Virus record (IMG/VR): IMGVR_UViG_3300050821_016647
Span: 32,001 to 96,000 of that record
Reading direction: 5' to 3' (one strand)
Origin: a virus
DNA length: 64,000 nucleotides
This document shows positions 5,568 to 25,065 of the stretch, piece by piece. The notes under the pieces are model-generated. The model ran no database searches. It was not told the DNA's origin and saw only the letters and a list, made by a program, of their open reading frames with translations. How positions within the stretch are numbered: position 1 is the first letter of the stretch; each line of letters begins with the position of its first letter. A program made the position numbers and the translations under genes.

Positions 5568-6116
5568 TCACTTTACGTGCACAACGAAGTGCTCAATCAG
5601 ATACGTCAGTCCTGTAACGACAGGAATGAGAATTCCCATATAGAAGAGATACTTATTTCTCGTTCTCTCTTCACGCTTCTCTTGAAGCTCTTCTCGCTGC
5701 TGAAGAGCAACCAACGCCTCTTTGGCGCCGCGCTCCTCGGCTTCCTTCTCTTTGATTTTCTCCTGAATGCGCGAGAGTTCCGCATGATCCATGACCCAGT
5801 GCGACCCGGTCGGTGATTGCGAAACGCGGACTTCGAGCTTCTCCGTCAGGGGCGGAGGTGGGACCGATCGAGTCTTGAGCGGAGGCGCCCCAACCGCACG
5901 AGCTACGTCTTCTAGACGCGCCTCGACTCGACCCGCGATCCCGTGCGCCGCCAGCGCAATGCCCTTGGTCTCGTCGATAGCGGCCTCGAGCTCAGGAATC
6001 TTCTTTTCGAGGTTGTCATTCACCTTGAACGCTAACGTGGCATATCCGCGTGCTAAGTCGATCGGTGCCATGGGGATGGCGGCCTCGTCATTTGCAGGTC
6101 GGGATGAGCTCGGCAT
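5568..6116 (-). CDS. Coiled-coil protein with C-terminal transmembrane helix
   Basis: Start moved to 6116 (TGATG overlap with upstream stop); E/K-rich coil; YLFYMGILIPVVTGLTYLI TM. Confidence 0.75.
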   Translation of the reverse strand: MPSSSRPANDEAAIPMAPIDLARGYATLAFKVNDNLEKKIPELEAAIDETKGIALAAHGIAGRVEARLEDVARAVGAPPLKTRSVPPPPLTEKLEVRVSQSPTGSHWVMDHAELSRIQEKIKEKEAEERGAKEALVALQQREELQEKREERTRNKYLFYMGILIPVVTGLTYLIEHFVVHVK

Positions 6117-7771
6117 CACGAACCCGCTACGGTACGCGCATGAGCTAGGTAGACGATGCCACCAATTCCAACTGCAACGACGGCAAGCCCAGCTACCAAA
6201 AGACCTGTGTTGGTGGAAGCCGGCGCTGCGGGAGCCACGAACGGAGCGACCGCTGGCGTCGATGTCGTCGTTGCACCGGTCCACGACGGCGTAAGCCCCT
6301 CCGGAATCGTCCCAGGCTGCGTCTGCGACGCAGGGGGAAGCGTCGTATCGCCCGTCCAGCCAGGTGTAGACGGTCCGGACGTTGGGGGTGCGTACGTAAT
6401 GTCGCCGATCGTCACCGATCCATCCGGGTTCGTCGTCGAGGCTGGCGGAAACGGAGCTTGACCGAGCCCTGCCATCGCACGCGCCGTGTCGCGTAGATCT
6501 TGAGCGTTCGCCGGGCCGAGCGGACCGACGCCCTTCAAGAGGTGAATCTGCGTGCTGCCGTTGTTGGGCTCCTGGTATACGCACCCGGGATCATCAAGCG
6601 CCGTCGAAGGATCCCACAAAAACTGATTGCAGGTACACGTGCCCCACTCCCACTCGCAGTAGGGGTGGTGCTCGTTGTCCGTCGGCTCCATCGAGGTCTG
6701 GCCGCAGCACCCGCCGAGACCGGTCGGTCCGATCGCCGTCGAAGGCTTTCCACACCCCGCGCACTGACCGACGCCCGTAGGTTCGCCAGAGAGCCCAACC
6801 GACAGCGTGTGCGCCGGCACTTCGGGATCGACTTCACCTGGATACCGATCCCAGATGTAATTCTGACCGAGCCCCGTCACGCCGTCGTCGCAACGATCGA
6901 CCTGGACGTTCCATCCGTCGCGCGCGGGGTAGAACTGGAAAATCCCTGAGACATCGCCGAAGCGATAGAAAACGACCTCACCCTGCTTCATCTTGGCGGC
7001 TTGGAGCTCTTTCCTCTTCGCCAAGACCTGCGCCGAATCACCCGTGTACGGCGACCACGAGCATGCGTCGACCTGCACCTCGGTCACGCCGTAAAAGTAC
7101 GGGTACCAGTAGCCGTCCCACCATCCACCGCCCCAACCCCAGCCTCCCCAGCCGTGGCCGTGGCCGTGACCGGGCGGAAATGGGTGATGCCCTCCTCCAC
7201 CGTGACCAGGATGTCCACCCCCTCCACCTCCGCCGCCTCCACCACCTCCTCCGCCCGGCGTCAGGTGAGGCGTCAGAAGACCGCCCGCGGGAGGAGCTGC
7301 GTGCTGAGGGGCATGCGCCGGTCGATTGCCGGCATGTCCTCCCCCGTGACCTCCACCGTGACCGCCTCCACCATGTCCGCCTCCGCCGCCTCGACCGAGA
7401 GCGCCGACGCCGGGATGGTGTTCTTCGTGCCTCTCAGCGTGCCTCGGAGTCTGCTGCCCTTGCTGCTGAGCCGTATGAAGCTTCGCAGAAGCTGCATTGT
7501 AGATCCCGACCAATCCGCCACCCGGACCACCTGCCGCATGTCCGCTGTGCCCTTTGTGAGAAGCAACATGGCCGCGACCCACACCCGTGGGCCACGACGC
7601 TGGTACGTGAAGCTGTTCTCCGACCGAGAAGTCAGAGAAGGTCTTCCCAAGCCCGGTCGGCAGCGTTGTCTTGTGCGGGTTCGCCGCCACGAGCTCCGGA
7701 AACCGTTGCCAGTTTCCGGTGAGCCTGTGCGCGATTCGTGCCGGCGTATCGCCTTGTCGGACGGTGTACAT
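6116..7771 (-). CDS. LysM-domain, Gly/His-rich modular virion protein with C-terminal membrane anchor
   Basis: YTVRQGDT...IA...ELVAANP...VGEQLHVP (LysM); 8 G[LV]G motifs; TM GLLVAGLAVVAVGIGGIVYLA. Confidence 0.8.
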   Translation of the reverse strand: MYTVRQGDTPARIAHRLTGNWQRFPELVAANPHKTTLPTGLGKTFSDFSVGEQLHVPASWPTGVGRGHVASHKGHSGHAAGGPGGGLVGIYNAASAKLHTAQQQGQQTPRHAERHEEHHPGVGALGRGGGGGHGGGGHGGGHGGGHAGNRPAHAPQHAAPPAGGLLTPHLTPGGGGGGGGGGGGGGHPGHGGGGHHPFPPGHGHGHGWGGWGWGGGWWDGYWYPYFYGVTEVQVDACSWSPYTGDSAQVLAKRKELQAAKMKQGEVVFYRFGDVSGIFQFYPARDGWNVQVDRCDDGVTGLGQNYIWDRYPGEVDPEVPAHTLSVGLSGEPTGVGQCAGCGKPSTAIGPTGLGGCCGQTSMEPTDNEHHPYCEWEWGTCTCNQFLWDPSTALDDPGCVYQEPNNGSTQIHLLKGVGPLGPANAQDLRDTARAMAGLGQAPFPPASTTNPDGSVTIGDITYAPPTSGPSTPGWTGDTTLPPASQTQPGTIPEGLTPSWTGATTTSTPAVAPFVAPAAPASTNTGLLVAGLAVVAVGIGGIVYLAHARTVAGS

Positions 7772-7803
7772 GGGCTTCCCTCAAACGTGACTTGCTGTGT
7801 GAC

Positions 7804-8235
7804 TTACCTGCGGCGCGCGTACGCGCGGTGAGAAGAACGTCGACCAAAGGACGACCTGGACTTTCCACCACCCTGAACTGTCTTGCGGTGAGCGAGGTAA
7901 GCAACCGCCGCGATTCCGCCGACAACCGCGATGGCGCCGAGGATGAGCGGCGTGTTGCCGGTCGTGAGCGACGAAAGGACCGAAGAAGCGGTACCCGTCG
8001 TCGAGGCAGCAGAGCCGACAGCTGTCCCACCGCCGCCGCCGCCGCTGCCCAAGATCGTTCCCGTGTATGTCGGGTCTGATCCGTCGGGACCAAGAAGCTG
8101 AGACGTTTCCGTCCCACCCTCGGCTCCGCCCGAAATGAGGCTGTTGCCTCCACTGTCCGTTCCGTCCGAGCCCGCTGCGGGCCCGAGCTGGCCTAGACCG
8201 CGCAGCAGTGAAGTGTGAAACGCCGGCTCATCCAT
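7804..8235 (-). CDS. Membrane-anchored virion protein with Arg-rich C-terminal tail
   Basis: Start MDEPAF with GAGAGG RBS; leader ...LLRGLGQ; G/S/T linker; TM LILGAIAVVGGIAAVAYLA; tail RRSSHRAYARRR. Confidence 0.8.
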   Translation of the reverse strand: MDEPAFHTSLLRGLGQLGPAAGSDGTDSGGNSLISGGAEGGTETSQLLGPDGSDPTYTGTILGSGGGGGGTAVGSAASTTGTASSVLSSLTTGNTPLILGAIAVVGGIAAVAYLAHRKTVQGGGKSRSSFGRRSSHRAYARRR

Positions 8236-8252
8236 GATCATCTTCCTCTCGT

Positions 8253-8972
8253 TCACCTGTTGGAAATTACGTATGCCAGTCCGAACCCGGCTGCGATGCT
8301 GATGACTCCCACGGCAAGCGGCACGCCCCATCCCGCGAGCGCATCGCCGATCGTCGAAGCGGTCGTGGTTGGCGTCGCCGTTTGACCAACTCCTCGAACC
8401 GCGACACGTCCAAACCCCACTGGAAAGCTCGTGCTCCCAGGAATGGACGGTGGAGCCGAGGGCGACGAGCACGGCGGCATCTGCACTGCGCACTTCGCTC
8501 CTTCGCAACCCTCGCATGGACCGCCTGCGGCGCAGCTGCCACAGCACGGCTTGCCCGTCGCCGACGTTCCGGGCGCCGCTCCTACACCTTCGCCCACGTG
8601 CTGCATCGCCGGTACGCCGCGACGACCCATGATCGTGAGAATGGGCTCGACGCCGTGGCCGCTGTCGTCCCCACCGCCGTCCGCTCCCGCTCGAGGACGC
8701 ACCGCATAGGCCGGCGCCGGCTGAGGATAGGCGTGACCTGCCACGCCCAACTGACGTGACGGAGCTCGAGACTCCCATGCTGGCGGCACTGTGAGGCGCT
8801 CGCCGACGTGGAGTTCTCGAAACGTAGGAATCTGACCGAGTCCGACGCGCGCGGTGACAGAGGACTTGTGTGCGTTCGCACGCACGAGCTCGCTCATTCG
8901 TGCAGGATTGCCCGTCAGTTTCTGAGCAATCACCATCGGCGTGTCGCCAGGTTGGACGATGTAGAAACTCAT
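8253..8972 (-). CDS. Second LysM-domain membrane-anchored protein
   Basis: Start MSFYIVQPGDT at 8972 (ATGA overlap, GGAGG RBS); paralogous LysM; Cys cluster KPCCGSCAAGGPCEGC; C-terminal TM. Confidence 0.8.
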   Translation of the reverse strand: MSFYIVQPGDTPMVIAQKLTGNPARMSELVRANAHKSSVTARVGLGQIPTFRELHVGERLTVPPAWESRAPSRQLGVAGHAYPQPAPAYAVRPRAGADGGGDDSGHGVEPILTIMGRRGVPAMQHVGEGVGAAPGTSATGKPCCGSCAAGGPCEGCEGAKCAVQMPPCSSPSAPPSIPGSTSFPVGFGRVAVRGVGQTATPTTTASTIGDALAGWGVPLAVGVISIAAGFGLAYVISNR

Positions 8973-10165
8973 CCGGGACCTCCGTTGCCTTGCCGCCATC
9001 GCGCAAGCCGGCGAAGAATGGCGTCCGTCGTAGGATTCTGCGGCGCTCTTCCGAGACCGGTCATGTTCGGGCGATGCACTACCGTCTTCGGCTCTCCACG
9101 GCCCGTACGCCACTGTTTAGCGATTCGTTGAATGATGCCGTCCGCCTTCGTGACTACGGCTGCGGGCAGTCCTGCCAGACGCGACGACGTGTTCGACGCA
9201 TTCGGATGAGGAGGCGACGCCGGACGCTTCGGCTGCGGCTCGCCGGACTGACCACCTTCGGGCAAACACGCGTCGTACGCGCTCGTATCCTCGGCGCTGC
9301 GTCGCATCGTGTTGTCGCCGACCTCGGTCGTGTCGCGCGTAAGTCGGTCACCATCGCCGGGACGTCGGTACGTCTTCGGTGATCCGGTCGGCGCCTGCTC
9401 TTCCATCTCGAAGATGAGTGATCCTGCGATGCGGCCGTAGATCGACAGGGGGTAGTTCTGGACGAACGCGTCCTCGGGCGTCGTGCCTTGCGTCGTCAAA
9501 AACTGAAGTGCTCCACCACCCGTCGTGGGCGGTGGCGCGGAGCGGGTACTCGGGTCCGTCTGCTGCACGCTCGCCATGAAAACGATGTTGCAGGGGCCCT
9601 CGAACGCCACGTCGCAGACAGAAGGCTCACTCCAACGGTCGCAACGCAAGTCGAAGAAGCGACCGAGCTCAGGAGTAAGAACGTTACCCGGAAACGATCC
9701 GCCGTACGGAGGCGTGACGACATTTCCGACGATGGTCTCGAAGATCTGAGCCGGTGTCTGACTCACCTCGAACGCCATTCCCTCGGCGTTCTGCGCGTTG
9801 GCCAGAATCTTGGCACCCGGCGGAAGCTTGCGGATGCCCCAGAGAACGTTACCGTCGACATAACTCCACGTCGGCGTCACCACCGGCCTCTCGAGCGGGT
9901 AGGTGTACGCGCCACCACCCGTACCGAGTGGAATCTGGTCGAGAAGCGTCAGGTACTGGCGAAATCCCACCACTCGCCCGCGTTGCCCGGCGTTGAAATA
10001 CTTCGCGCACAGCACAAAGAGCTGCCGCTGCGTCGGAACCTGCGGACCGCCGTTCGTCCCGATGAAGAGGCCGAGGTCATACGGACCACCGAGTGGGTCC
10101 GAGCCAACAAGCTGCCGGTTCGGATTCAGCCCGACCGTCACGATTTCTAGGCGGCTGCGACGCAT
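8969..10165 (-). CDS. Beta-rich structural protein, candidate jelly-roll minor capsid/vertex protein with disordered C-tail
   Basis: GGAGG RBS; strand-like segments RGRVVGFRQYLTL, CNIVFMASVQQ, YGRIAGSLIFEM parallel those in 11366..11971 and 12087..13328. Confidence 0.5.
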   Translation of the reverse strand: MRRSRLEIVTVGLNPNRQLVGSDPLGGPYDLGLFIGTNGGPQVPTQRQLFVLCAKYFNAGQRGRVVGFRQYLTLLDQIPLGTGGGAYTYPLERPVVTPTWSYVDGNVLWGIRKLPPGAKILANAQNAEGMAFEVSQTPAQIFETIVGNVVTPPYGGSFPGNVLTPELGRFFDLRCDRWSEPSVCDVAFEGPCNIVFMASVQQTDPSTRSAPPPTTGGGALQFLTTQGTTPEDAFVQNYPLSIYGRIAGSLIFEMEEQAPTGSPKTYRRPGDGDRLTRDTTEVGDNTMRRSAEDTSAYDACLPEGGQSGEPQPKRPASPPHPNASNTSSRLAGLPAAVVTKADGIIQRIAKQWRTGRGEPKTVVHRPNMTGLGRAPQNPTTDAILRRLARWRQGNGGPG

Positions 10166-10189
10166 TACGCTGCCTCCCGTGCTATAAAT

Positions 10190-10299: not shown

Positions 10300-11295
10300 A
10301 TGAAAACCGACCCGGAGAGCCGTTGGTTCACCATCTACGTTCACACGTGCGACGCGGACCCGCGAAGCAGCGGCGATCGTCTTGGTAAAGGAAAGCAGTA
10401 CGTCGGGCAGGTGGTTCATTTGCTCGGTGACGCTTCGGACACGCCGGAACTGGCAATGAAAAGGCGATGGCGAGCAAAACGTTATGAACGATCGCTGATC
10501 GGTCATACTGTCCGTCAGTTCGGAACAAAGAATTTTCGTCACGAGATTCTTGATACTGTACTCGGACAGACCGCGGCCAACCTCGCTGAAGCCGAGTGGG
10601 CTGAAAAACTCGATACCTACGAACCACACGGGTACAACAGAAGAAAATGTGGAACGCAGGGTGCACTGACTTTTGAGGAACGCAGTGCGTTTGGCCGCAT
10701 CGCGCGTCGTAAAGGAATGGAAACGCTTGGTCCAGAAGGACGAAGCGCAGCCATGTACAAGGCTAAGGAAACGTTGGGACCCGAAGGACGAAAGGCAATT
10801 AGTCGTAAAGCAATGGAGACACTCGGTCCCGAAGGACGGAGCGCGGCTGCTCAAAAAGCGAAGGAAACGCTGGGACCCGAAGGACGAAAATCGGCCACTC
10901 GCAAGGCGAATGAAACGAAGGGTCCTGAAGGTCGAAGTGCTGCCGTCCGCAAGGCGCTGAAAACAATGGGTCCTAAAGGTCGGCACGCACGTGCACTCAA
11001 ATCGAATATGACATCGGGACCAGATGGTCGAAGCGCCCGTGTGCGCAGAGCCAATGCGACGAGAGGGCCTGAAGGACGAAGAGCCTCTGCTCTCAAAGGA
11101 ATCGAGACTCAAGGTCCCGAAGGACTGAAACAACGCCTCTACAAGGCTTGGGACGTGCGTTGGTTCAAAGCGCTTCGACTCGCTCTTGCACAAAAAGACT
11201 TTGTGAGAGCTATCGGCGTTCTCAAGGCGTGCCTCTACGCCACAATGCGGAGGCTGGCCGAAGATCCTCTCTTTGGCGAACAGATAGTCGAATAG
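10300..11295 (+). CDS. Free-standing GIY-YIG homing endonuclease with nine 16-aa repeats
   Basis: FTIYVH...KQYVGQ GIY-YIG-like motif, downstream R, E (EAEW) and GYN; antisense insertion in the structural operon. Confidence 0.75.
   Translation: MKTDPESRWFTIYVHTCDADPRSSGDRLGKGKQYVGQVVHLLGDASDTPELAMKRRWRAKRYERSLIGHTVRQFGTKNFRHEILDTVLGQTAANLAEAEWAEKLDTYEPHGYNRRKCGTQGALTFEERSAFGRIARRKGMETLGPEGRSAAMYKAKETLGPEGRKAISRKAMETLGPEGRSAAAQKAKETLGPEGRKSATRKANETKGPEGRSAAVRKALKTMGPKGRHARALKSNMTSGPDGRSARVRRANATRGPEGRRASALKGIETQGPEGLKQRLYKAWDVRWFKALRLALAQKDFVRAIGVLKACLYATMRRLAEDPLFGEQIVE
10711..11142 (+). repeat. 9 x 48-nt (16-aa) coding tandem repeat K(A/G)xET(L)GPEGRxAxxx
   Basis: KGMETLGPEGRSAAMY / KAKETLGPEGRKAISR / KAMETLGPEGRSAAAQ ... 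KGIETQGPEGLKQRLY. Confidence 0.9.
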
Positions 11296-11365: not shown

Positions 11366-11971
11366 TCACGGGCACTCCACCGCCGGGGGGACCCAAAATC
11401 CGAGCTCGCGAAGTTTGCAGGCCGCAACGTCCACGCTGATTTCGTCTACTGTGTGGTCCAAAAATTGCCAGCCGTTGAACGTAAGTACACAGTTGTACGG
11501 GGGCGCATTGGGCTCGCTCGCCGGGAACACTTGCGTGAGCATGAACTCGATCTCGATGTTCTGTTGCTTGTAGAGCGGCCACCCGCTCACCCAGCGCGAC
11601 GAGATGAGGTTCACGAAGTTGTTGAGCGGCGTGAAGTTCGGCGAGACGAGGTAGCGCGGCCCCGAGTGCACCGTGCAGCGCACCGAGATGCCTGGCGCCA
11701 TTCGGAGGTTCGCGTCGTACAGCGTCTTGAAGATGTTGCCCGCGAAGACGTTCGGCTGCTGAAGATCGTACTGGAGATTGTCTATCCAAGTTCTTTGGGC
11801 AATGGTTGTATCAAGACCAGCTTCGATGGGTTGCTGCCCCAGAGCCGCAGAGGAGAATGAACCCGATGCGTTGATCGAGATTGGAATCCGAGGAATCCCG
11901 AGGACGATCCCATACGCCGCGATCGGGTCCATGACCGCTAGGTCTTGAATGTACTGCGGCTTCGGTTCCAT
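11366..11971 (-). CDS. Beta-rich structural protein, candidate small single-jelly-roll capsid protein
   Basis: 201 aa; strands TWIDNLQYDL, ISVRCTV..RYLV, WPLYKQQNIEIEFML, YNCVLTFNGWQF; directly downstream of the MCP candidate. Confidence 0.55.
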   Translation of the reverse strand: MEPKPQYIQDLAVMDPIAAYGIVLGIPRIPISINASGSFSSAALGQQPIEAGLDTTIAQRTWIDNLQYDLQQPNVFAGNIFKTLYDANLRMAPGISVRCTVHSGPRYLVSPNFTPLNNFVNLISSRWVSGWPLYKQQNIEIEFMLTQVFPASEPNAPPYNCVLTFNGWQFLDHTVDEISVDVAACKLRELGFWVPPAVECP

Positions 11972-12086: not shown

Positions 12087-13328
12087 TCAGCCGCCCGCTG
12101 ACTGCGCGGTCCCGACCACGCCCGCCGGGACGAGGTGGTTCAGGATGTACTGCTTCCAGGGTCCCCAGATCTCGAAGCCCTTGATGAGAATGGCGAGCTG
12201 GAGCGCGCCACCCTTCATGAGCACGCGATCCGTCTCGACGGCCTTCTCGACCACGATCGTGGTCGGCTCTGCCGTGTCCGCGAACGACAGCTCTGCGATC
12301 GTAACCGCCGTGAGGCCGTCCGTCGCCGGGCCGATCGGCATCACGGTGTGCGTGGTGCCGAAGCCATGGTCGTTGTTGGACAGGTATTGCTTCATGAGGT
12401 TCTGGTGGTACTCGTCCTGCGCCTTGAGCACCATCCCGATCGGGATGCCGCGCTCGAGCAGAACCGGCTTGAACAGCTTCCGGAACGGCTGGAGCATGCC
12501 CGTCATCCCCTGCGTGCGGAGGCCGCCGTAGGTGACGTCGAGCAGATCGTACGCGCGGGTCGGGTGGTACACGCCCGTGCTCGTCGCGCCGCCGGTCGTG
12601 ACCGACCCGATGCGCTGCGAGTTGATCGGGAGGAACGTGCCCGTATCACCGATGGGCGCGCCCTGGTACTTCGCGTTCACGCGGTCGACGTACCGCTGGA
12701 ACGCCTGCTGCGAAGAGCCCGCCGCGACGGCCTCGGCGTACGAGCCGAAGTAGCTCACGTCCGCCGCCAGCTCGTTGATCAGCAGGTAACGCTGCTGCAT
12801 GATCCACTGGAACTGGTAGGCGTTCATGAGGTGCCAGAGCGCGTTCTGCGCGCAGACGCCCCACTCGAGCGTGGCCGGGGTCATCGTCTGACCGCCCGAG
12901 AGTCCGAGGCCGGTCAGGTCATCGGTCGCGAACGAGTCGGGCGAGTTCGGGATCGCCCCGGATGCCGGCTGGAAGTTGATGTAGTTGCCGATCTGCGAGC
13001 CCTGCTGGGGCTCGGCAAACCCGTGCACGCCGAAGCCGATGACCAGCATGTCGACTTGGAGGATGCCGTTGATGACGAACGAGCTGTCGACGTCCTGGAC
13101 CCCCGGTACGGCCTTGGGGTTTTGGAGCACGTCGATCTCGTCACCGAACGTCCCGTCGATGAAGCCGTCGGCGACGGGCAGATCGATCGTCCACGTCACG
13201 TACTCGATGACGGGCACCTGCGTAAAACCGCAAGTGAGAACGCTGTTGACGACGTTGTCGGAGGGAGCCGCACCGAGTCCCACCATGCGGCTGGGATTCT
13301 CGAGCTTGTGCATGCTTGAGCTTTTCAT
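12087..13328 (-). CDS. Candidate major capsid protein (jelly-roll type)
   Basis: 413 aa, beta-rich, AGGAG RBS, very strong C/G third-position bias, followed by a terminator-like hairpin, next to the core protein; N-terminal leader ...ENPSRMVGLG; no HK97 features seen. Confidence 0.55.
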   Translation of the reverse strand: MKSSSMHKLENPSRMVGLGAAPSDNVVNSVLTCGFTQVPVIEYVTWTIDLPVADGFIDGTFGDEIDVLQNPKAVPGVQDVDSSFVINGILQVDMLVIGFGVHGFAEPQQGSQIGNYINFQPASGAIPNSPDSFATDDLTGLGLSGGQTMTPATLEWGVCAQNALWHLMNAYQFQWIMQQRYLLINELAADVSYFGSYAEAVAAGSSQQAFQRYVDRVNAKYQGAPIGDTGTFLPINSQRIGSVTTGGATSTGVYHPTRAYDLLDVTYGGLRTQGMTGMLQPFRKLFKPVLLERGIPIGMVLKAQDEYHQNLMKQYLSNNDHGFGTTHTVMPIGPATDGLTAVTIAELSFADTAEPTTIVVEKAVETDRVLMKGGALQLAILIKGFEIWGPWKQYILNHLVPAGVVGTAQSAGG

Positions 13329-15427: not shown

Positions 15428-15543
15428 AGCGCCGGCTTCGTCGCTTTCACTCCTGAATGCGTTCATTCGAGCCGCATAATCCCCGCCGGATGACTTCGCC
15501 ATCCACAACGAATACGCCCACGCGGGCGGAACGACAACTCGCT

Positions 15544-16379: not shown

Positions 16380-16392
16380 TCGCCGACCGCGA

Positions 16393-16692
16393 TCAGATGG
16401 CCGCGAGATTCGACGCGTAGGGCTGGAAGATGGATGGCAGATTCGCAACGGCGGCCTGACCGGCCGGCGTCTGAAGCCATGCCTGCTCGTTCGCAGTCAC
16501 CGGCGTCGAACCCGCCGGTAGCGTCGCGGCATACGCGGCGTTGAGCTGGGACGCCTCGTAGATCGTGTACACGATCCCGGCCGCGGTAAGCGTCCCGAGG
16601 CCGATGAGCAGCCACTCGATTCCGGTCGGATTCTCTTTGCCGTACGCGCGAGAGCTGCTGAAACGACGGCGTCGATGATGTCTTCTTCGCAT
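16393..16692 (-). CDS. Small membrane protein, paralogue of 15978..16379
   Basis: MRRRHHRRRRF...KENPTGIEWLLIGLGTLTAAGIVYTIY. Confidence 0.8.
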   Translation of the reverse strand: MRRRHHRRRRFSSSRAYGKENPTGIEWLLIGLGTLTAAGIVYTIYEASQLNAAYAATLPAGSTPVTANEQAWLQTPAGQAAVANLPSIFQPYASNLAAI

Positions 16693-16722: not shown

Positions 16723-17646
16723 TCAGATCCTTCTTGGACCTGGAACTTTGCCGACTCCACGCACCATCTGCTGCGAAAACGCGTAGTCCTTTGCCTCTTT
16801 CACCGGAGTGCCGTCTGGAAAACACGGCAATCCTCTCTCGAGCCCGACAGGCACGTAAGACGCGCTGTCAGCTTGAGGCGCGAAGGCGTGAGCCATCGGA
16901 AAGACGCCAACGCCTGTTGGTTGAGCTGCTGGCTCTGTCTGCACAGGCACTGCGCCCACTCCAATGAAGTCGCCGTGGTCCGGTTCTTTTCCCATGGTCG
17001 TCGGAGCTCCGTTAGGTGTGGAAGACATTGTCCCGCTGATGGGGTCGACCCACCATTCCTTGGTCGCCGGATAGGACTCGTCCACGCCGTATTTCTCTGA
17101 CGACGGATCGACCTTCATCCAATTACCGTTGTCGCCGAGCACGGCGCAAATGACGTGGGTTGCCTGAGAGGTCCCGTACGCCTGACCTACGATCCGTGTC
17201 TCGATGCCAATCGAGAGCATTGCCGATGCGAACGCGATGCAGCGGTCATCACAATCGGCGGCAGGCATGCAGAGCCCATGTTCGTCCAGACAAAGCGTAC
17301 GAGCAGGAGTCGCCATGAGCTCGGTGTTGACCGGGTCCTGGACGTAAACGGTCCTTTTTCGAATCTCGTTGAGGATGGCTTGCGCCTGTCCTTTGACGGT
17401 CTTCGGCTTGCCCGCGGCAATGAGAACTTTCCCGGCGAACGCGCGGAGCCGCGGGTCATTACGGCCGTCGCGAATGTACTTCGACATCTCGTTGAGCGAG
17501 TAATTCGTCCCTTCAACCCCCGGTGGATGTCGGTCCTGAATCACCGGCGTTCCAAGCGCTTTCGCCGCCTCGGTCGCAGACGGAGCGAAGCCTTTGCCGA
17601 AACCAGCAATCGGGCGGGGAAATGCGGGAACGTCGGAATCGCTCAT
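16723..17646 (-). CDS. Transglutaminase-like (papain-fold) enzyme, candidate maturation protease or cross-linker
   Basis: Start MSDSDV two nt after the upstream stop; ADCDD (Cys), THV (His), WMKVDPS (Asp) catalytic-triad pattern; upstream YVQDP motif. Confidence 0.8.
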   Translation of the reverse strand: MSDSDVPAFPRPIAGFGKGFAPSATEAAKALGTPVIQDRHPPGVEGTNYSLNEMSKYIRDGRNDPRLRAFAGKVLIAAGKPKTVKGQAQAILNEIRKRTVYVQDPVNTELMATPARTLCLDEHGLCMPAADCDDRCIAFASAMLSIGIETRIVGQAYGTSQATHVICAVLGDNGNWMKVDPSSEKYGVDESYPATKEWWVDPISGTMSSTPNGAPTTMGKEPDHGDFIGVGAVPVQTEPAAQPTGVGVFPMAHAFAPQADSASYVPVGLERGLPCFPDGTPVKEAKDYAFSQQMVRGVGKVPGPRRI

Positions 17647-17648: not shown

Positions 17649-18224
17649 TCACCCCGCCAGTAAAACGTTCGGTGCGACCCAGTAATTGTTGAAGACCTGC
17701 GTCCACCCGGCCCCTGGCGATCCGACCTGGTACACGGCCTTGAGGTGGTGCGGCATCGCCGTCACACCGGTAGGACACCAGATCCAATACTCACCGACCT
17801 GATGCCACTGACCTTGACCGGCTTGCGGCGCCTTCGACGGCATCGCCCCGTGCGTGTACCAGAAGCCGCGCGGATCGAACTTGGGAGGAATCTGCGCGCC
17901 AGCGGCGACGAGCGTCGGCGCAGCTTGAATGTTGGTCTTGTGGCCTTCAACGATCGAAAGAGACGTGTGCTCCGGAGGAGGCGACATCGCAACATCAGGG
18001 CGCATCAGTGCTCCAACACCTTCCGGCTCTTTCGCGGCTCCTTCCGACTCCTTCCCTACTCCCTCCGGTTCCTTCCCTACACCCTCCGGCTCCTTCACCG
18101 TACTCTTCGTCGGTGCCGAGGTATCCGGCCACTTCTTCCTCTCTCCCCCAGGAAGCAGACCCAGACCTCGAATGATCCCCTGAGGGAAGATGTAGTCCTT
18201 GTCGGGATTGCGATCGTCACTCAT
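17649..18224 (-). CDS. Virion protein with KEPEGVG heptad repeats and aromatic/Gly-rich C-terminus
   Basis: AAGGAG RBS, ATGA overlap; leader KDYIFPQGIIRGLG; 4 x 21-nt repeat at about 18011-18095. Confidence 0.75.
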   Translation of the reverse strand: MSDDRNPDKDYIFPQGIIRGLGLLPGGERKKWPDTSAPTKSTVKEPEGVGKEPEGVGKESEGAAKEPEGVGALMRPDVAMSPPPEHTSLSIVEGHKTNIQAAPTLVAAGAQIPPKFDPRGFWYTHGAMPSKAPQAGQGQWHQVGEYWIWCPTGVTAMPHHLKAVYQVGSPGAGWTQVFNNYWVAPNVLLAG

Positions 18225-18745
18225 CGAGCTCTCCTTCGTGGCTTCGCGCGTCGTACGCGTCTGAACCTTCGTTGCGTTCCGTGACCGATCGAAAGCGGGT
18301 TTGACTTCATTCCCGCCGGAGCAACCGCGGGTCGCATCGCCGACCATGCGATGAACCCGAGGAGTCCGAGAAGCGCAGTTCCACCGAGCACCCACGCCCA
18401 CGTGGGCACGCTCGAGGTCGCGGGAGCTGCGGCTACGGGAACCGGCGCTGTGTACGTCGGAAGAGGAAGAGTGCCAGGAAACGACGTGGGCACGATCGCC
18501 GTCGAGCCGACAGGATTGAGTCCGTCCGTCGAAGCTGGAGGCGTCACACCGGGTATCGGGATCTCCACGCCCGATACGAGCGGCGTCGTATCCGCAGTCA
18601 CAGCCGGAGCCGGCGGCGGCTCGGGCGGTGGCGTAAGTGGCGGGAGAGTGGTCGGAGCGTACATGACCCCGGCAGATACCTGGCCTAGACCTGTAGGAAC
18701 AGAGGCGCCGTTTTGGGGCGTAGCAGGCGTAGCTGTTGCTTCCAT
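18221..18745 (-). CDS. Pro/Thr-rich membrane protein with NP motif and Arg-rich tail
   Basis: TGLGQ near N-terminus; TM WAWVLGGTALLGLLGFIAW; KSNPL...RRFRRVRRAKPRRRAR. Confidence 0.8.
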   Translation of the reverse strand: MEATATPATPQNGASVPTGLGQVSAGVMYAPTTLPPLTPPPEPPPAPAVTADTTPLVSGVEIPIPGVTPPASTDGLNPVGSTAIVPTSFPGTLPLPTYTAPVPVAAAPATSSVPTWAWVLGGTALLGLLGFIAWSAMRPAVAPAGMKSNPLSIGHGTQRRFRRVRRAKPRRRAR

Positions 18746-18790
18746 GCGCCTACAGTATCAGGCACTCCCGAAGTCGTCGAGAATGGGCTT

Positions 18791-19573
18791 CTACGTCGAA
18801 GACGACGCAGGCGAAGAAGCCTCGGAAACGAGATAAATCACGCCACCGAGGACCGCAATTCCGAGCAGTCCAGCTATCACCATAGCCGTCGTAGACATTC
18901 CTGCCGGCGCTACGGATGGGGCGTAATACTGCGCCGGCTGAGGCTGTCCCGCTGCGGCCATCGTAGCGAGAATCGCCTGCGCCGACGCCGAGGAACGTGC
19001 CGTAGGCGTTGTCCCGGGAGCGGATGGGTACGTAGGGGAGTACGTCCCAGGAAGTCCCGATTGAAGCGTCGTGTTCACGACGAACGATGGCGCAGAAGAA
19101 GGAACGGGAATGACTGGCGATTCTCCTGGAGCCAACGGCTGAATTTTTCCGACTCCTGAGGGGAGACCCATGACGCCTCCGATAGCAGCACCTGATCCGA
19201 GCTTGCTCGTCTTGGACACGTAGTGCCCGCCGTGGCCCGTACTCTCGACGAAGAGTCCGTCAACGCAGATCAAGATCTCATTCTTACCCCCGGACGTGTA
19301 CTTACCAGTCTTAGCGTCGTATCCGGTGTAAACGAACTTGAAGAGGTATCCTCCATAAGTGAAATATGGAGAGACCCCGATCTGGGTCATGTAGTAGTTG
19401 AAGACCGGGCCGTAGTTGAGCGAGACGCCGTCGATGGTGACGTACGGACCGTGGCCTTGCGTTATCACTCGCAGCCAGCGCTTGCACTGGCGAGCGCCGG
19501 TCAGAACGATGCCTTCCGGCGGTGATGGATTTACGCCGAGACCTCGGACCAGCGCTGGGCTGAACGCGTGCAC
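18791..19573 (-). CDS. Membrane-anchored virion protein (Tyr/Gly-rich domain)
   Basis: GTG start MHAFSPALVRGLG just after the upstream stop; YFTYGG motif shared with 19582..20922; C-terminal TM. Confidence 0.7.
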   Translation of the reverse strand: MHAFSPALVRGLGVNPSPPEGIVLTGARQCKRWLRVITQGHGPYVTIDGVSLNYGPVFNYYMTQIGVSPYFTYGGYLFKFVYTGYDAKTGKYTSGGKNEILICVDGLFVESTGHGGHYVSKTSKLGSGAAIGGVMGLPSGVGKIQPLAPGESPVIPVPSSAPSFVVNTTLQSGLPGTYSPTYPSAPGTTPTARSSASAQAILATMAAAGQPQPAQYYAPSVAPAGMSTTAMVIAGLLGIAVLGGVIYLVSEASSPASSST

Positions 19574-19581
19574 GATCTGCT

Positions 19582-20922
19582 CTAATCGAGCAAATAGTAC
19601 GCGCCCACACCCGCACCACCGACGAGCAAGAGCGCCCAGAGCCACGCGTACGACGTCGTCGCAGCGGCGTACGGGATGAAGACCCAGTACGCGGGCCCGG
19701 TGTTGATCCACTGTCCCGTGATGCCGGCGGCTGCGAGTTGCGCAGGGACCTGCGTCGGCCTCGGAAGGGTCGGGCCACCGATCCCCAGAAGTTGGTTCAC
19801 GTTGCTGACCACGTAGTACGTGTTGACGATGGCAAGCGAATACGCCGGCATCGGGTACCACTGCCAGAAGTGCGGGCGAACCATGCACCACGCGCCAGGC
19901 AAAGAAACCCCGGGCGGAGGTGCCGTCGGTCGCGCAACCCCCGTGCTGTTGTACACCCACGCGAACTGCCCCAGTCCGGCAGCGGTCTGGAATACGGGGA
20001 TTCCCGGTTGAGGCGCCGTAGGCGGAAGCACCATGGCCAAGAACTGCGCGCTGAGCACCGCCTGGTGAACGGAAGGAATCCCGCTCGCGGAGTAGACGAG
20101 CGCGACAGGAGTCAGAGCACCAGCAACCACAGGCGCAGTCTGCACAACCGTGACCGCACCAACGGTGCACTGCTGGATCGGACCGTTCGTCAGCGTAGGG
20201 TTGTAGCGGAAGTGCGACCCGCCGTACGTGAAGTAGATCCAGCCATCGGATGCCGTCGATACGCCGCCGACCGCCAGTCGCGAAGACAGCGCAGGAGCCA
20301 CCTGAAGAAAGAGCGCGCTCGTCGAGGACAGACCCTTCCAGCCCGAACCGGCTGGGCAAGCAAACGGATTCGTCAGCGTCACCTGCCCGAGACCGGTCGG
20401 CTTGCGACCGACACCGACGATATCCGCTGCCCCGTCCGCAAAAGCGCCGACACCGGTCGGCAGTCCGTTGATGCCTTGGAAGTGCGAAGGCGGGTTGTAG
20501 TGCGTTCCGTGCGGGAAAAGCTCCTCTCCGCCGGCCAGCAGCTCCGCTGCCTCCCCAGACGACCCTGCGGCTGGACCGAGTCTGCCGCCCCCCTCTCCGC
20601 CCACATTTGTCGCCGACCCAGAAGATGTACCTCCTGCACCCATGTTGCCGTGAGGACCCTCACTGCCTCGCGGCTCAGGGGTCAAGTTGTACCCTCCGCG
20701 ATTGACCTCGTGCCATCCGCTTGGCTGCCCTACGCCCGCCGGCATTCCGGCGACGCCGTGAAAGTGCTCGGGGACCTTGTACACGGCACCTTTCGCGTCA
20801 GGCCGGACCAGTGTTAGGCCAAGTCCGGTAATCGGCATCGCGAACGCTCGGTCTCGAGCAGGACTCGCAGGATTCCGTCCGAGTCCAAGGTGACGAACGT
20901 CGAAGGCGCAATCCTGGGTCAT
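19582..20922 (-). CDS. Modular membrane-anchored virion protein
   Basis: 7 G[LV]G motifs; CPAGSGW and YFTYGG motifs; C-terminus TSYAWLWALLLVGGAGVGAYYLLD. Confidence 0.8.
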   Translation of the reverse strand: MTQDCAFDVRHLGLGRNPASPARDRAFAMPITGLGLTLVRPDAKGAVYKVPEHFHGVAGMPAGVGQPSGWHEVNRGGYNLTPEPRGSEGPHGNMGAGGTSSGSATNVGGEGGGRLGPAAGSSGEAAELLAGGEELFPHGTHYNPPSHFQGINGLPTGVGAFADGAADIVGVGRKPTGLGQVTLTNPFACPAGSGWKGLSSTSALFLQVAPALSSRLAVGGVSTASDGWIYFTYGGSHFRYNPTLTNGPIQQCTVGAVTVVQTAPVVAGALTPVALVYSASGIPSVHQAVLSAQFLAMVLPPTAPQPGIPVFQTAAGLGQFAWVYNSTGVARPTAPPPGVSLPGAWCMVRPHFWQWYPMPAYSLAIVNTYYVVSNVNQLLGIGGPTLPRPTQVPAQLAAAGITGQWINTGPAYWVFIPYAAATTSYAWLWALLLVGGAGVGAYYLLD

Positions 20923-20996
20923 GGTCGATCTCTCCTACCTTGTCGTCTGTCTCGACAGGGTAAACTAGCCGAGCGGGTACCGCAACTCTGCGTTTT

Positions 20997-21551
20997 TCAG
21001 TCGATCAGATAGTAGCCAGCGGCCCCAGCCGCTCCGAGCCCGAGTAGCACCCAAAGCCAGGTATACGACGTTGGCGCAGCAGTGACGGGCATCGCGCCTT
21101 GAGAGGTGAGCGTCACAAGCGCCGGATTGAACGTCATGGGCGCCCCGGCGACCACGATGGGCGCCGAGCCTCCGCTCTGATGAGCCGCGACAGAGCTCTT
21201 GCTCGCGCAGACGCTCACGCTACCGAAGCCGGGCGAGAACATGATCGGCAAGCCTGACGACAACTTGAAGTAGAAGTTGCCGTCTGCGGCAGCTCGCGAC
21301 GGATACAAGGAAGCCCAGTTTCTTATCCACTTGACGAGAGCGCCGGTGAGCTCGGGCACCTTCGGCGACGATGGGCTCGGAGGGTACGCGTTCACCCAAG
21401 AATAGCCCGCCGGACAGGAAATAGGCTTCGCCGACCAGTTCGGAGGCGTGAGTCCCAGCCCCCTCGGTCGAAGACGCGCTGAAAACGCGCGGTCGCTCGG
21501 GGCCGGCACGCGACCGAAACCTTGAATCGGAAAAGCGTAGTCCTTGGACAT
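20997..21551 (-). CDS. Short paralogue of 19582..20922
   Basis: Start MSKDYAF; double leader; CPAGYSW; C-terminus TSYTWLWVLLGLGAAGAAGYYLID. Confidence 0.8.
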   Translation of the reverse strand: MSKDYAFPIQGFGRVPAPSDRAFSARLRPRGLGLTPPNWSAKPISCPAGYSWVNAYPPSPSSPKVPELTGALVKWIRNWASLYPSRAAADGNFYFKLSSGLPIMFSPGFGSVSVCASKSSVAAHQSGGSAPIVVAGAPMTFNPALVTLTSQGAMPVTAAPTSYTWLWVLLGLGAAGAAGYYLID

Positions 21552-21553
21552 GG

Positions 21554-21838
21554 TCACTCCGTAGCAAAGTAGATGAGGGCCCCGATCACTGCAACTCCGA
21601 CGGCTCCGGCAATCACGTAAGGAACCAACGACGGTGCTGCCGCAGCCGACGCCGTTCCCGGCGCGGTCACTGCAAGACCCTGATCCAGACTCGCTTGCGC
21701 CGCGACGACTCTCGCTTGAGCCGCTTGAATAGCGGTCGTGTTTCCGCTCGCAGCAGCTTGTGCCAGCGCCGTCTGCGAATTTTGCCACTCGGTAAATTGC
21801 GCCGTCAGCTGCGCTTGAGTCTGTCCGAGGCCGCTCAT
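21554..21838 (-). CDS. Small helical membrane-anchored protein
   Basis: MSGLGQ start, Q/A-rich helix, C-terminal TM. Confidence 0.8.
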   Translation of the reverse strand: MSGLGQTQAQLTAQFTEWQNSQTALAQAAASGNTTAIQAAQARVVAAQASLDQGLAVTAPGTASAAAAPSLVPYVIAGAVGVAVIGALIYFATE

Positions 21839-23310
21839 CTTCGAAGCAACCTTCCAGCTCGAGCAAGACCAAGCTTCGTCGTTTCGACGGGGGACGTATT
21901 CGTCGCCGCCGAGTACGCCAGAATGGCAAAAGCCAAGGTGCCTGCGGCGCCTGCTGCTACCGCGCCGACCTTGCTAGCCGTCGTGAGGGTCGGGGCAGCA
22001 GCAACCGTCACAGACTGTGTTGGTGCAGTCGTCCAGTCTTCGGGACCCGTCCACACGGCTCCATTCGCCATGGCGCGAGCCATAGCGGAATAGTCCGCAA
22101 TCAGCTGATGGAGCGTGGCCTGAGCTTGCGTGGTCGACCAGCCAACACCTTGAAGAGTATGACCAGGATACCCGAGCTCGAATTTCTGCCCCCCATTCGG
22201 CTGACTCGAACCGAACGTTGTTCCGTTCTTGTTGAGGATGTACGCCTGAATCGACAGCTCGGCGACGATGGCCATAGGCGAAGCGCCGCAGCTCAACATG
22301 CCAAGCACGGTCGCGACGGCATTCATTCCGTCAGGGTTGAAGTAAATAGTCTGCCCACTCGTAGGTCCGTTCCCCGGAGCGGCTGTGCCGTAGAGCGATG
22401 TTCCGAAGTAAAGAGGGTCCGGCCGTCGCTGCTGCGCTCGCTGAACGATGAGCGCCTGGGTCAGCGTGTCACTCACCCCTTGCGTGGACTGAATCCACTT
22501 GTTTTGTAGGGCCGTTGCGCTTCCACCGGGCCCACCCGATCCGAAATAAAGATCGAGCGTGCAGTCCACCAGTCCTCCCGGACCTGTGTTCGTCGGCGTC
22601 GACCAGTTCCACCATACCGGTGTACAGAGCGGCTGCTCTTTCCCTTTTTTCCCAGTCACCGTATTCAGGACGGAATTGAGTGACGCCGATCGCGTATTCT
22701 GGCTTAGAAACGTTGGGCCGTAGCTCGGCAGTATTTGGTAAAACGGATTGGTGGCCCAAGCTCCATAGAGCAGATTCCTCCACGTTGACTCGCGCTTCGA
22801 AGTCGAAGGTGGATAAACGGACGCACACCAATCGGCCATCGCCCACCCCTGTGGGTTGTCCGACATGAGTGCTCGTTTCGAATTTGCGTAAGCAATCACA
22901 CGCTCGGTGATGACCTCGGTAGCCTGACTCACGCCGCCGACGGCAGTAACGCCCTGAAATGTCCCGAGGCTCGCAAGCCCTTCAACTAGACCCGCCACAG
23001 CGCCGACCGCAGCACCGTACGGACCTGCGATAGCTGCCCCTTGCATAGCACCGCTGAGAACGTCGGCCGCCATCGTCGCGACCTGCTGGTACTGCGCACC
23101 GCCGATACTCGTGATGAAAGAGATGCCAGCCTCGGCGAGCGTCATGAGCCCGTCGGAGGTTCCGCTTTGAATCGCGTTGACGAGATTCTGACCGTGCGTA
23201 ATTGCGTCCGACGCACTCGACGGGATATTTGCGAGCTGCGTCGCTGGATCGTTGAGGTGGGAGACTAGCGCCGAAGCGGACGAGAATTGGCCTAGCCCTC
23301 GAGCGCGCAT
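21835..23310 (-). CDS. Large virion protein with Gly-zipper segment, candidate DNA-delivery/membrane-penetration protein
   Basis: MRARGLGQ start; GAAIAGPYGAAVGAVAG; C-terminal hydrophobic helix. Confidence 0.6.
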   Translation of the reverse strand: MRARGLGQFSSASALVSHLNDPATQLANIPSSASDAITHGQNLVNAIQSGTSDGLMTLAEAGISFITSIGGAQYQQVATMAADVLSGAMQGAAIAGPYGAAVGAVAGLVEGLASLGTFQGVTAVGGVSQATEVITERVIAYANSKRALMSDNPQGWAMADWCASVYPPSTSKRESTWRNLLYGAWATNPFYQILPSYGPTFLSQNTRSASLNSVLNTVTGKKGKEQPLCTPVWWNWSTPTNTGPGGLVDCTLDLYFGSGGPGGSATALQNKWIQSTQGVSDTLTQALIVQRAQQRRPDPLYFGTSLYGTAAPGNGPTSGQTIYFNPDGMNAVATVLGMLSCGASPMAIVAELSIQAYILNKNGTTFGSSQPNGGQKFELGYPGHTLQGVGWSTTQAQATLHQLIADYSAMARAMANGAVWTGPEDWTTAPTQSVTVAAAPTLTTASKVGAVAAGAAGTLAFAILAYSAATNTSPVETTKLGLARAGRLLRR

Positions 23311-23358
23311 GCGCCCAGCCTACATCGGTCCACTCTGGAGCGCTACGAAACGCTACGT

Positions 23359-25065
23359 TCAGCCCCAGAGCGGGCCGGACGGGACCGGGATTGTCGGCTT
23401 TTTCGGAGCCGGCGGCGGAACAGGAGCGGGTCTCGGAGGCGGCGCTGCTTGCACCGGCGCTGCTTGCGGAGGAGGAGGCTGCGGAGCTTGCGGAGGCTGC
23501 GGCTGCGGAGGAAGCACCGGAACCTGAGGGTTCTGCGCGCGCGACACCGCGTTGGCAAGTTCGATTCTCTGCTTCACCGCGTTGTTGGTCAGTGCCGCCT
23601 GATGGTCGACGATCTTTCGGTACTGGTCGACGCCCTTGGTCACGAACTCGGAAATTTTCGGAAGTGCCCCCACGAGCGTCGGCGCCCATGCGACCTTTCC
23701 CGTCGCGCGATCGAGCGCCATGGAGATACCACCCACGTCCTGAGTTAGCATTGCCGGTGGCACCTGCGGCACATCCTGAGGCCCATCGTCGATCTCATCA
23801 TCGACTGTCGCTGGCTGCGGAGCGAAGCCTGCGAACATGTCCTGCACAGTCTTCATCCCGGACATGGCCTCTTGAAGCATCGAAACCGTGCCCTTGATCT
23901 GCGCTCCGAACGACGGTTGCGGAGCCGGCGGCGGAGCCTGAACGATGACCTGCGCGGGCTGCGCAGGCGCGGCCGGCGCCGCAACGGCAACAGGCACTTG
24001 CCCCACTCCGACAGGACCGACAGGATACGCAGCCATCGGCGGTGCCGGCATCATGCCTCCAGGCACACGCACGTAACCGGGTGGGACGGGATACTGCTCA
24101 GACGGAAGAGAGATGAAACCCGCCGGAGGCTGTGGCTTCTTCATCTCGGCGACCATTTCCTTGAGCGTCGCCATCGTTGCGGCGTTCTGCGCCTGCATCA
24201 TCTCGAACAGCGCACGATTCGCGTCGAACCCGCCGGAGGCGGGTGCGGGCGGGGGCGGCATGTAAATGGGCTGCGGAGCCGGTACGGGTGCAGGAGATTG
24301 CGGCGGAGCTGCCTGCTGCTGCTGCGGCTGCTGCGGAGGAGACACCACGATGACCTGCGGTGACTGCTGCTGCGGTTGAGGCTGTTGTGGCCACGGGTAC
24401 CCAGGAGAAGCGGGCCAACCCTGACCTCCTCCGCTACCTCCACCGGCACCTCCTCCAGGATACGCGTACTGAGGTTGCTGCGGTTGCTGTTGCTGTTGCT
24501 GAGGTGCCGGAGGATTGATCACTTGCACGGGAGACGGCGCGGTTTTATCCGGCATGAACAACTTTGCCGTACCGCGTTCCGCACCTGAGCTCGATCGGAA
24601 CGAGATCTTGTATGTCGCCGGACCGCTCATGCCATGTTGACTGGCAACGTAGTTGTACAGATCGATCGAGTTCCTGACGTTCGCACCGAGCACCGGTTGA
24701 AATTGCGCTCTCGGTCCAGGGTCCTCTCGAGAGACCAGAATGATCATCGATCCCCATTCCTGAGAGAACGGGATGATGAGATTGTCGATGAGCTCGAGAG
24801 CTTCCTCGGCATTCCAAGAAACGCTTTTGCCGAGTGCTTTGTCCCGGAGCTTGGCTGCGTTACGCTTGTTCTTTCGCGCGGAGTCCACAGTCAAAGCTCC
24901 TATCGCACGAGCTTGTTCCTCGGAAACTTCCCCTTCCATGGTGGGGGTCCCGTCCGGGTTCGTGGGAACCGCGGCCGGCAGCGTAACCCGGGTCACGTCG
25001 CTCATGTCGACGTCGGCGTCTTCGGGGGTCACTTCGGAACGTCGAGCTACTCGGTGACGAGCCAT
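23359..25065 (-). CDS. Pro/Gln-rich low-complexity protein (scaffold-like)
   Basis: 568 aa; poly-Q and poly-P tracts between small folded segments; GVGQ motif. Confidence 0.75.
   Translation of the reverse strand: MARHRVARRSEVTPEDADVDMSDVTRVTLPAAVPTNPDGTPTMEGEVSEEQARAIGALTVDSARKNKRNAAKLRDKALGKSVSWNAEEALELIDNLIIPFSQEWGSMIILVSREDPGPRAQFQPVLGANVRNSIDLYNYVASQHGMSGPATYKISFRSSSGAERGTAKLFMPDKTAPSPVQVINPPAPQQQQQQPQQPQYAYPGGGAGGGSGGGQGWPASPGYPWPQQPQPQQQSPQVIVVSPPQQPQQQQAAPPQSPAPVPAPQPIYMPPPPAPASGGFDANRALFEMMQAQNAATMATLKEMVAEMKKPQPPAGFISLPSEQYPVPPGYVRVPGGMMPAPPMAAYPVGPVGVGQVPVAVAAPAAPAQPAQVIVQAPPPAPQPSFGAQIKGTVSMLQEAMSGMKTVQDMFAGFAPQPATVDDEIDDGPQDVPQVPPAMLTQDVGGISMALDRATGKVAWAPTLVGALPKISEFVTKGVDQYRKIVDHQAALTNNAVKQRIELANAVSRAQNPQVPVLPPQPQPPQAPQPPPPQAAPVQAAPPPRPAPVPPPAPKKPTIPVPSGPLWG

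Follow-up and report, generated by a model that had tools for sequence, protein, structure and literature searches.

A repeated Gly-hydrophobic-Gly tag in the putative virion proteins of a large uncultured virus, and the transglutaminase-fold enzyme that may cleave it

Why would a virus write the same three-residue glycine motif again and again into the genes that appear to build its particle? The question is raised by IMGVR_UViG_3300050821_016647, a large, uncultured and apparently tailless virus with a record of 127,529 bp, of which we analysed bases 32001-96000 (64,000 nucleotides, hereafter the window; coordinates are those of the window unless marked as genome). In a block of putative virion genes at 6116..25065, the motif G-[LVF]-G (hereafter the tag) was originally predicted to be either a processing site of pro-proteins and polyproteins or a site of Gln/Lys cross-linking. 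Our analysis favours processing: comparisons of sequence suggest, with a probability of roughly 0.55, that a virus-encoded cysteine protease of the transglutaminase fold, the product of gene 16723..17646, recognises the tag and cuts there.

The tag itself is real. The 19 curated minus-strand genes of the block (5,712 amino acids) contain 52 copies of G[LVF]G, spread over 17 of them, while 1,000 composition-preserving shuffles give 14.2 +/- 3.8 copies with a maximum of 28; the enrichment is thus 3.7-fold, and 16-fold when Gln, Lys or Arg follows (27 copies of G[LVF]G[QKR] vs 1.7 expected). The remaining 170 called genes are at background (42 copies vs 38.6 expected). The original prediction had announced more than 35 copies in about 15 genes, copies in the core and Pro/Gln-rich proteins and sporadic occurrence elsewhere, all of which holds once composition is corrected for. 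Its counts per gene are also recovered: 8 in 6116..7771, 4 each in 16723..17646 and 17649..18224, and 7 in 19582..20922, to which an eighth copy within a transmembrane (TM) helix must be added. The two block genes devoid of the tag encode a 201-residue protein (11366..11971) and a protein of about 145 residues (15544..15981). Masking of TM helices leaves 47 copies vs 15.3 expected, and other G-x-G triplets are not enriched in the block (GAG, 5 vs 10.3 expected) apart from GGG and GHG, the excess of which comes from a Gly/His-rich tract. The codons are diverse (44 distinct 9-mers among the 52 sites) and Gly codon use is that of the background, so selection acts on the protein and not on the DNA. 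Compositional and TM artefacts as well as a DNA-level repeat are therefore ruled out. Some copies are probably incidental: six are TM glycines and others lie in folded cores, for example at residue 98 of the capsid candidate. The copies of the two small proteins of 15978..16692 are probably not sites either, because they fall inside a TM helix.

Beyond the glycines, the full consensus reads P-[T/R]-G-[LVF]-G-[Q/A/R/K]-x-P: over the 52 sites, Pro is found at -2 in 18, Thr or Arg at -1 in 21 and Pro three residues on in 17, and the residue directly following the tag is Gln in 14 and Lys in 6, both enriched. An upstream [AI]F-x(2-8) extension is present 10 times vs 1.6 expected, and in ten proteins the first copy lies at most 20 residues from the start.

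Conservation is clear at two places, one of which is the leader of the candidate major capsid protein (MCP, 12087..13328). All 119 aligned homologues, down to about 42% identity, carry the motif within their first 60 residues, with G17 kept in 118, G19 in 115, R14 in 104 and P22 in 117. The twelve residues before the tag have a mean conservation of 0.31, and residues 1-13 are modelled as disordered, with a predicted local distance difference test (pLDDT) score below 50. Among distant full-length homologues, 66 of 89 keep the tag, often in 2-3 copies. The residue that follows is free: Q in 44 of the 119 leaders, A in 38 (about a third, including the leader of this genome) and eleven other residues in the rest, so that Q or K amount to 49. 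The P4 residue is M, L or I in 51.

The other place is the enzyme. Gene 16723..17646, the sole gene of its kind in the genome, matches PF01841 (E 2e-7); the LapG family model (DUF920) is not matched, PF01841 being the only match at E up to 0.1. The predicted fold places a transglutaminase-like core at residues 20-210, with Z scores of 13.6 to 3kd4, 11.7 to Factor XIII and 10.1 to LapG, and residues C132, H164 and D180 are invariant in 30 homologues. By its modelled fold and its Cys-His-Asp triad, the enzyme is a member of the transglutaminase-like superfamily. It is encoded in 30 of 31 related viral records (some of them near-duplicates), the exception being a record that is linear and stops 1 kb short of the MCP gene. 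In seven relatives (L002, L020, L026, L028, L032, L035 and L050), an intein with Hint and LAGLIDADG matches interrupts the gene such that the catalytic Cys is its +1 residue, which, from what is known of intein biology, marks a conserved and presumably essential active site. The gene originally proposed as the enzyme thus appears to encode an intact, conserved catalyst. In addition, the tag frames its core: conservation rises from 0.12 before to 0.64 after the N-terminal tag, and drops from 0.63 before to 0.24 after the C-terminal one. At this GVG boundary, G229 is invariant and V230 and G231 are conserved in at least 90% of the 30 homologues, and the next residue is Q or K in none of them. 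The boundary copy is even kept in the enzyme of distant L059, although the tag is gone from the MCP of that locus. Several relatives extend the enzyme by additional modules and a TM anchor, which would place it on the same membrane side as the tags.

How could tag and enzyme work together? Particle proteins would be made with short leaders, or as modules fused via the tag, and the enzyme would cut them at the tag, most likely behind the second Gly, while the particle assembles or once it has assembled; such cleavage would trim the capsid leader, separate modules and release the enzyme from its own flanks or membrane anchor. We infer that the tag is read by 16723..17646 and that the enzyme hydrolyses rather than transfers. 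The exact bond is more tentative: a cut after the second Gly is the more likely, and a register like that of the adenovirus protease AVP, G-X↓G, may also apply, since 16 of the 52 sites are compatible with (M/I/L)XGX↓G (12% in the background). Cutting is favoured because the enzyme's own edges are tagged, because the residue after the tag is free and because the tag is found at a fusion junction: the module that directly follows the GLG at residue 300 of 6116..7771 is, in L001 and L017, a free-standing gene starting with a leader and GLG. The boundary copies of the enzyme also recall the self-removed propeptide of SPN3US gp245, which lends support to a protease. No alternative enzyme emerged from known maturation peptidases, as C5 (PF00770), C57 (PF03290), Ulp1-like C48 (PF02902) and S78 prohead (PF04586) proteases were found in none of five complete genomes, other protease families not being searched individually. 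Processing at G[LV]G is therefore the part of the original prediction that is best supported, with an intact enzyme at hand and support drawn from sequence.

Several observations weigh against proteolysis at the tag. The fold fails to separate a protease from an acyl-transferase, given the score to Factor XIII, and the JAB-domain protein 26182..27255 is as conserved as the enzyme. If every copy were cut, LysM-like modules would be freed from their anchors. Conservation is not in general higher downstream of the sites (7 vs 5), and tiny leaders and tandem copies would suit a docking tag equally well. The leader tag is absent from four distant MCPs, one of them in a locus that retains the enzyme. 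Block-wide enrichment is strong (z above 4) in some related loci and weak or absent in about half, where G-hydrophobic-Ser/Ala variants are found; in the core protein of one large clade, tandem repeats alternate between G-hydrophobic-G and G-hydrophobic-S/A/H at one and the same position, which suggests a relaxed third residue in that clade. Conservation, finally, holds for the MCP leader and the enzyme boundaries and not for many single copies, which are not positionally conserved and turn over rapidly. Two further approaches were silent: covariation of the enzyme tail variant (VG vs MS/MA) with the genome-wide motif variant gave no clear signal, and a complex predicted between the enzyme core and the MCP leader scored 0.03, which is no answer and is not used as evidence.

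The main rival, which we hold doubtful, is that the tag is never cut and serves in docking or sorting: together with the [AI]F extension, it would bind a pocket on a capsid protein or an assembly factor and recruit proteins to one membrane face, and the enzyme would carry it only to be packaged and act on another substrate. The close spacing of tandem copies (a few residues), the shortness of the leaders before the tag (2-4 residues), the conserved Arg and Pro around the MCP copy and the location of the tag and of a second motif, Asn-Pro, on opposite sides of TM helices are all consistent with such a role, and the capsid targeting sequences of T4 show that leaders can be address labels, though these are also cut (PMC7411985). 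What docking leaves unexplained is why nearly all relatives keep an intact enzyme in the block, with the tag at both edges of its core. Alternatively, the enzyme could act like a sortase, its acyl-enzyme being resolved by an amine (Lys or a new N-terminus) so that LysM-type modules become covalently joined to the shell. Acyl-transferases do exist within the same fold and this would account for the receptor-binding-like modules upstream of the sites, but the transfer of a short MCP leader has no obvious use. Moreover, animal transglutaminases have a conserved Trp beside the catalytic Cys, which is absent here, the active site reading DCD[DEG] as in bacterial cysteine proteases; we therefore consider transpeptidation unlikely.

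Slightly less likely again is that the tag is cut by a host protease or by the RadC-like JAB metalloprotein. The JAB gene is present once in each of 12 circular genomes, at the head of the block in the loci that show it, and JAB proteases cleave ubiquitin-like proteins behind their C-terminal Gly. RadC-type JABs, however, occur widely in mobile elements and probably have nucleic acid as their target; this one has no tag of its own, and it is the cysteine enzyme that bears a boundary tag in the cultured phage SSIP-1. Classical transglutaminase cross-linking, in which the Gln or Lys after the tag would be donor or acceptor, fits the Factor XIII-like fold and the excess of both residues after the tag in this genome. 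This second branch of the original prediction is nonetheless improbable: the Gly pair is invariant and Q/K is not, as seen from the Ala of so many MCP leaders, including this one, and from the enzyme tails, which all lack Q/K after the motif. That the tag has no function at all, being a product of Gly-rich composition, GxxxG patterns in TM helices, paralogy or a DNA recombination repeat, is the least probable of all. A few copies do lie in TM helices or folded cores, paralogous modules are shared by some proteins and individual single copies may lack a function, but the enrichment over shuffles, its persistence after TM masking, the diverse codons and the invariance of the tag in MCPs refute this explanation for the MCP and enzyme copies.

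What kind of virus carries this system? The record has direct terminal repeats, so the genome is a complete circle; it comes from soil metagenomes, with no RNA data set listed for it. It encodes a GH25 muramidase along with an integrase, a primase-helicase and Thy1; in relatives, peptidoglycan-binding and LysM domains are found, and these domains and the muramidase point to a bacterial host. Matches to metagenome-assembled genomes (Acidimicrobiales, Binatia, Polyangiaceae) are short contigs that do not establish the host. None of the 12 circular genomes of the group has a match to Terminase_6N (PF03237), other terminase families not being searched individually, or to the packaging ATPases Pox_A32 (PF04665) and FtsK (PF01580), and the Walker A motifs of called genes belong to other ATPases. 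The block is a minus-strand run in which many genes have a single C-terminal TM helix, accompanied by an Arg-rich protein and three conserved soluble proteins, and this gene anatomy, together with a conserved gene order, suggests that it encodes virion proteins. Metagenomes are rich in members of this lineage, for which neither PHROGs nor GenBank phages give a match.

The MCP candidate belongs to a family of 405 homologues (255 representatives at 50% identity). Its AlphaFold2 model (pLDDT 86.7) has a single jelly-roll with a large insertion of about 160 residues; a double-jelly-roll MCP was considered and is unsupported by this model. Structural matches are weak (Z up to 5.6), with the capsid proteins of SPV1, HCIV-1 and P23-77 found among cellular jelly-rolls; SPV1 VP4, in particular, aligns over 118 residues at Z 5.3 with a root-mean-square deviation of 3.6, tied with non-viral folds. 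Foldseek returns only low-probability matches to papillomavirus L1, and neither this nor the VIA maximum Z of 5.6 is proof of a new fold or of exclusion from a family. In the ESM Atlas, tailed-phage MCP clusters are hit at 0.93 with low shared-feature counts, which is unconfirmed and conflicts with the AlphaFold2 model. No match was found in PHROGs, PDB or GenBank phages, and HHalign detected no paralogy among the MCP candidate and the conserved 201- and 260-residue proteins. Given the weak structural matches, 12087..13328 is only a presumed capsid protein, and the 201-residue protein could possibly be a second one. The features of the block are listed in Table 1.

Table 1. Features of the tagged gene block and its surroundings (window coordinates).
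Feature	Coordinates	Strand	Basis or remark
LysM-like modular protein; C-terminal TM anchor; 8 copies	6116..7771	-	LysM from sequence resemblance and Pfam matches of relatives
GLG (residue 300) at gene-fusion junction	6866..6874	-	Comparison with loci L001, L017
Two C-terminally anchored membrane proteins; 1 + 5 copies	7804..8241, 8253..8972	-	Tag kept by orthologues in L001, L002, L017
Conserved soluble protein, ~260-residue core; one copy in C-terminal extension	8969..10165	-	44 loci
Conserved 201-residue protein beyond MCP gene; no motif	11366..11971	-	44 loci; profile similarity to MCP not detected
Candidate MCP, 413 residues	12087..13328	-	405 homologues; AlphaFold2 model
MCP leader motif GLG, residues 17-19	13272..13280	-	R-x-[IVF]-G-L-G-x-x-P following variable, disordered leader
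Arg-rich core protein; N-terminal half basic, then Asn-Pro and hydrophobic helices; 3 copies in C-terminal region	13442..15502	-	
Asn-Pro immediately before first TM helix of core protein	14411..14416	-	Second motif
~145-residue His protein; invariant W, Y, R, H, G, P; no Gly motif	15544..15981	-	Start codon uncertain
Two small basic-Asn-Pro-TM proteins; G-L/V-G copies within TM helix	15978..16692	-	
Transglutaminase-fold Cys-His-Asp enzyme (C132, H164, D180); 4 copies	16723..17646	-	PF01841; fold; invariant triad
Enzyme C-terminal boundary motif GVG, residues 229-231, in GDFIGVG	16954..16962	-	
Enzyme N-terminal boundary motif GFG, residues 15-17	17596..17604	-	Close clade only; low pLDDT at 12-16
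Six genes	17649..18224, 18221..18745, 18791..19573, 19582..20922, 20997..21551, 21554..21838	-	
491-residue C-terminally anchored protein; tag at residues 5-7	21835..23310	-	
Pro/Gln-rich protein; one copy	23359..25065	-	Position of copy not conserved
RadC-like JAB domain protein at head of block	26182..27255	-	PF04002, E 2e-29

Some features call for a comment. The six genes of 17649..21838 all have their first copy at most 20 residues from the start, and five of the six products have a C-terminal TM anchor. The N-terminal copy of 21835..23310 is not seen in the called orthologues of L001, L002 and L017. An Asp-Tyr-Ala/Ile-Phe leader element recurs at the starts of the 20997 and 17649 open reading frames, and also starts a small gene at genome ~122843..123067, far outside the block and without the Gly tag. 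Between the structural genes, on the opposite strand, a 331-residue open reading frame (10300..11295, +) with tandem repeats of about 15 residues resembles a mobile endonuclease gene. Elsewhere in the window, 51758..52093 (+) encodes a small DUF2604 protein (PF10790, E 2e-9).

A second motif runs through the genome. A basic stretch followed by Asn-Pro beside a TM helix is found in about 20 small membrane proteins, which include genes at genome ~18400-23200 and 97000-102600, as well as in the core protein. Asn-Pro mostly flanks the helix on its more basic side, and in C-terminally anchored proteins the Gly tag is on the opposite side from it. The His protein, which has no Pfam, PHROG, PDB or Atlas match, was found in 14 loci, and in all of them Asn-Pro precedes the first core-protein helix. 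Both are missing in a large sister clade, where the gene is missing genome-wide, and near the core gene of distant L056; L021, which falls within the sister clade on a quick MCP tree whose long branches are unreliable, retains both. In two fusions, the His-protein domain is directly preceded by an Asn-Pro of its own. With so few independent events, the pairing of Asn-Pro with the His protein is only a lead. The Gly tag and the cysteine enzyme both persist where this pair has been lost, which helps to assign the former to the latter. The core protein of the sister clade has Glu-Ala/Ser-basic repeats in place of Asn-Pro, and a conserved N-terminal domain of about 68 residues (L004:8143-8350, L054:1019-1294) that is absent from this genome.

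Taken together, a more speculative picture can be drawn, which we regard as rather unlikely in its entirety: large bacterial viruses that are tailless, lack a packaging ATPase and have a single-jelly-roll capsid (circular records of 60-130 kb) would form an undescribed lineage, in which particle maturation relies on two peptide codes, one on each side of the membrane. The first, Gly-hydrophobic-Gly, would be read by the transglutaminase-fold enzyme, which would cut, perhaps ligate, capsid-side proteins, while basic-Asn-Pro would be read by the His protein, which would process the DNA-facing Arg-rich core to protamine-like pieces, each enzyme having its own code at a domain edge.

Adenoviruses, poxviruses, African swine fever virus (ASFV) and tailed phages characteristically mature by proteolysis directed at a motif. 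For prokaryotic viruses that are tailless and contain a membrane, the searchable literature, which covers few subscription papers, yielded no report of such maturation, and a transglutaminase-fold enzyme that reads a Gly-based code is apparently undescribed in tailless phages. If true, this enzyme would have solved the same problem independently, with implications for the origin of Gly-directed maturation in eukaryotic jelly-roll viruses. The proposal is readily testable, because the enzyme is small and contains a predicted site itself, and because a cultured phage encodes a homologue. This homologue, gp34 of SSIP-1 (L062 21296..22210), was missed by tblastn and found by profile search: its match to the enzyme profile has E 5e-12, the triad is present, and the protein has GMG at a boundary and a TM helix at its C-terminus. 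In the SSIP-1 record, gp34 is annotated as a structural protein without functional annotation; the motif is mildly enriched (18 vs 10.2 expected). SSIP-1 is tailless and membrane-containing; it differs from our virus in its 44 kb genome and annotated structural ATPase, and has no match to the MCP, 201- or 260-residue profiles.

How does this system compare with known ones? As regards the shell, SPV1 (Portogloboviridae) and the two-MCP helvetiaviruses also have single-jelly-roll capsid proteins, and SPV1 lacks a packaging ATPase (PMC8812541). Structural matches to their proteins (Z 4-5) are no better than those to non-viral jelly-rolls, and the present virus has a 413-residue MCP candidate with an insertion and a genome of 127.5 kb. 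Portogloboviridae infect archaea, whereas a bacterial host is indicated here. With respect to the two MCPs of helvetiaviruses, we see one jelly-roll model (Z up to 5.6) and a 201-residue neighbour without profile similarity to it; the FtsK/A32-type packaging ATPase of helvetiaviruses and SSIP-1-like viruses has no counterpart by PF04665 or PF01580 in the 12 circular genomes. As regards the enzyme, LapG is a tested protease of the transglutaminase fold that cuts a small-residue motif near the N-terminus of its substrate (PMC3032545), so this fold can yield a motif-specific protease. The viral enzyme shares with LapG and other bacterial transglutaminase-like cysteine proteinases the fold and the Cys-His-Asp triad; LapG, however, is cellular, has one adhesin substrate and is controlled by LapD, whereas here the PF01841 match lies in a putative virion gene block. 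For the cross-linking transglutaminases Factor XIII and TG2, a conserved Gln donor and Lys acceptor would be expected at the sites and are not seen.

As regards maturation, adenovirus AVP (adenain, MEROPS C5) cuts at (M/I/L)XGG↓X and (M/I/L)XGX↓G (PMC4246237). By analogy, a single viral Cys protease would act here too on many capsid and core precursors with a short Gly motif, an Arg-rich core protein included. The differences are that (i) the enzyme has a transglutaminase fold and no PF00770 match, (ii) most sites lack the AVP P4 residue, Pro being the commonest, and (iii) a bacterial host, membrane-anchored substrates and a single-jelly-roll capsid candidate are involved. Poxvirus I7 and ASFV S273R differ in their protease families, C57 and C48, and in their sites, AG↓X or GG↓X instead of G-hydrophobic-G. 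The original prediction knew of no equivalent in a bacterial virus, which was overstated: T4 gp21 and SPN3US gp245 each process numerous head proteins at a short motif, and gp245 also cuts off a C-terminal propeptide from itself (PMC7411985). Shared with them would be a bacterial virus, a motif common to many substrates, short leaders and a protease with its own site before a C-terminal propeptide. Those enzymes are serine proteases that cut after Glu in tailed heads, unlike the Gly-based site seen here in genomes without S78 or terminase matches. Because the AVP and T4/SPN3US enzyme families were searched for and not found, the system belongs to neither, and by analogy it likely works as both do, a viral enzyme maturing many particle proteins at one short motif.

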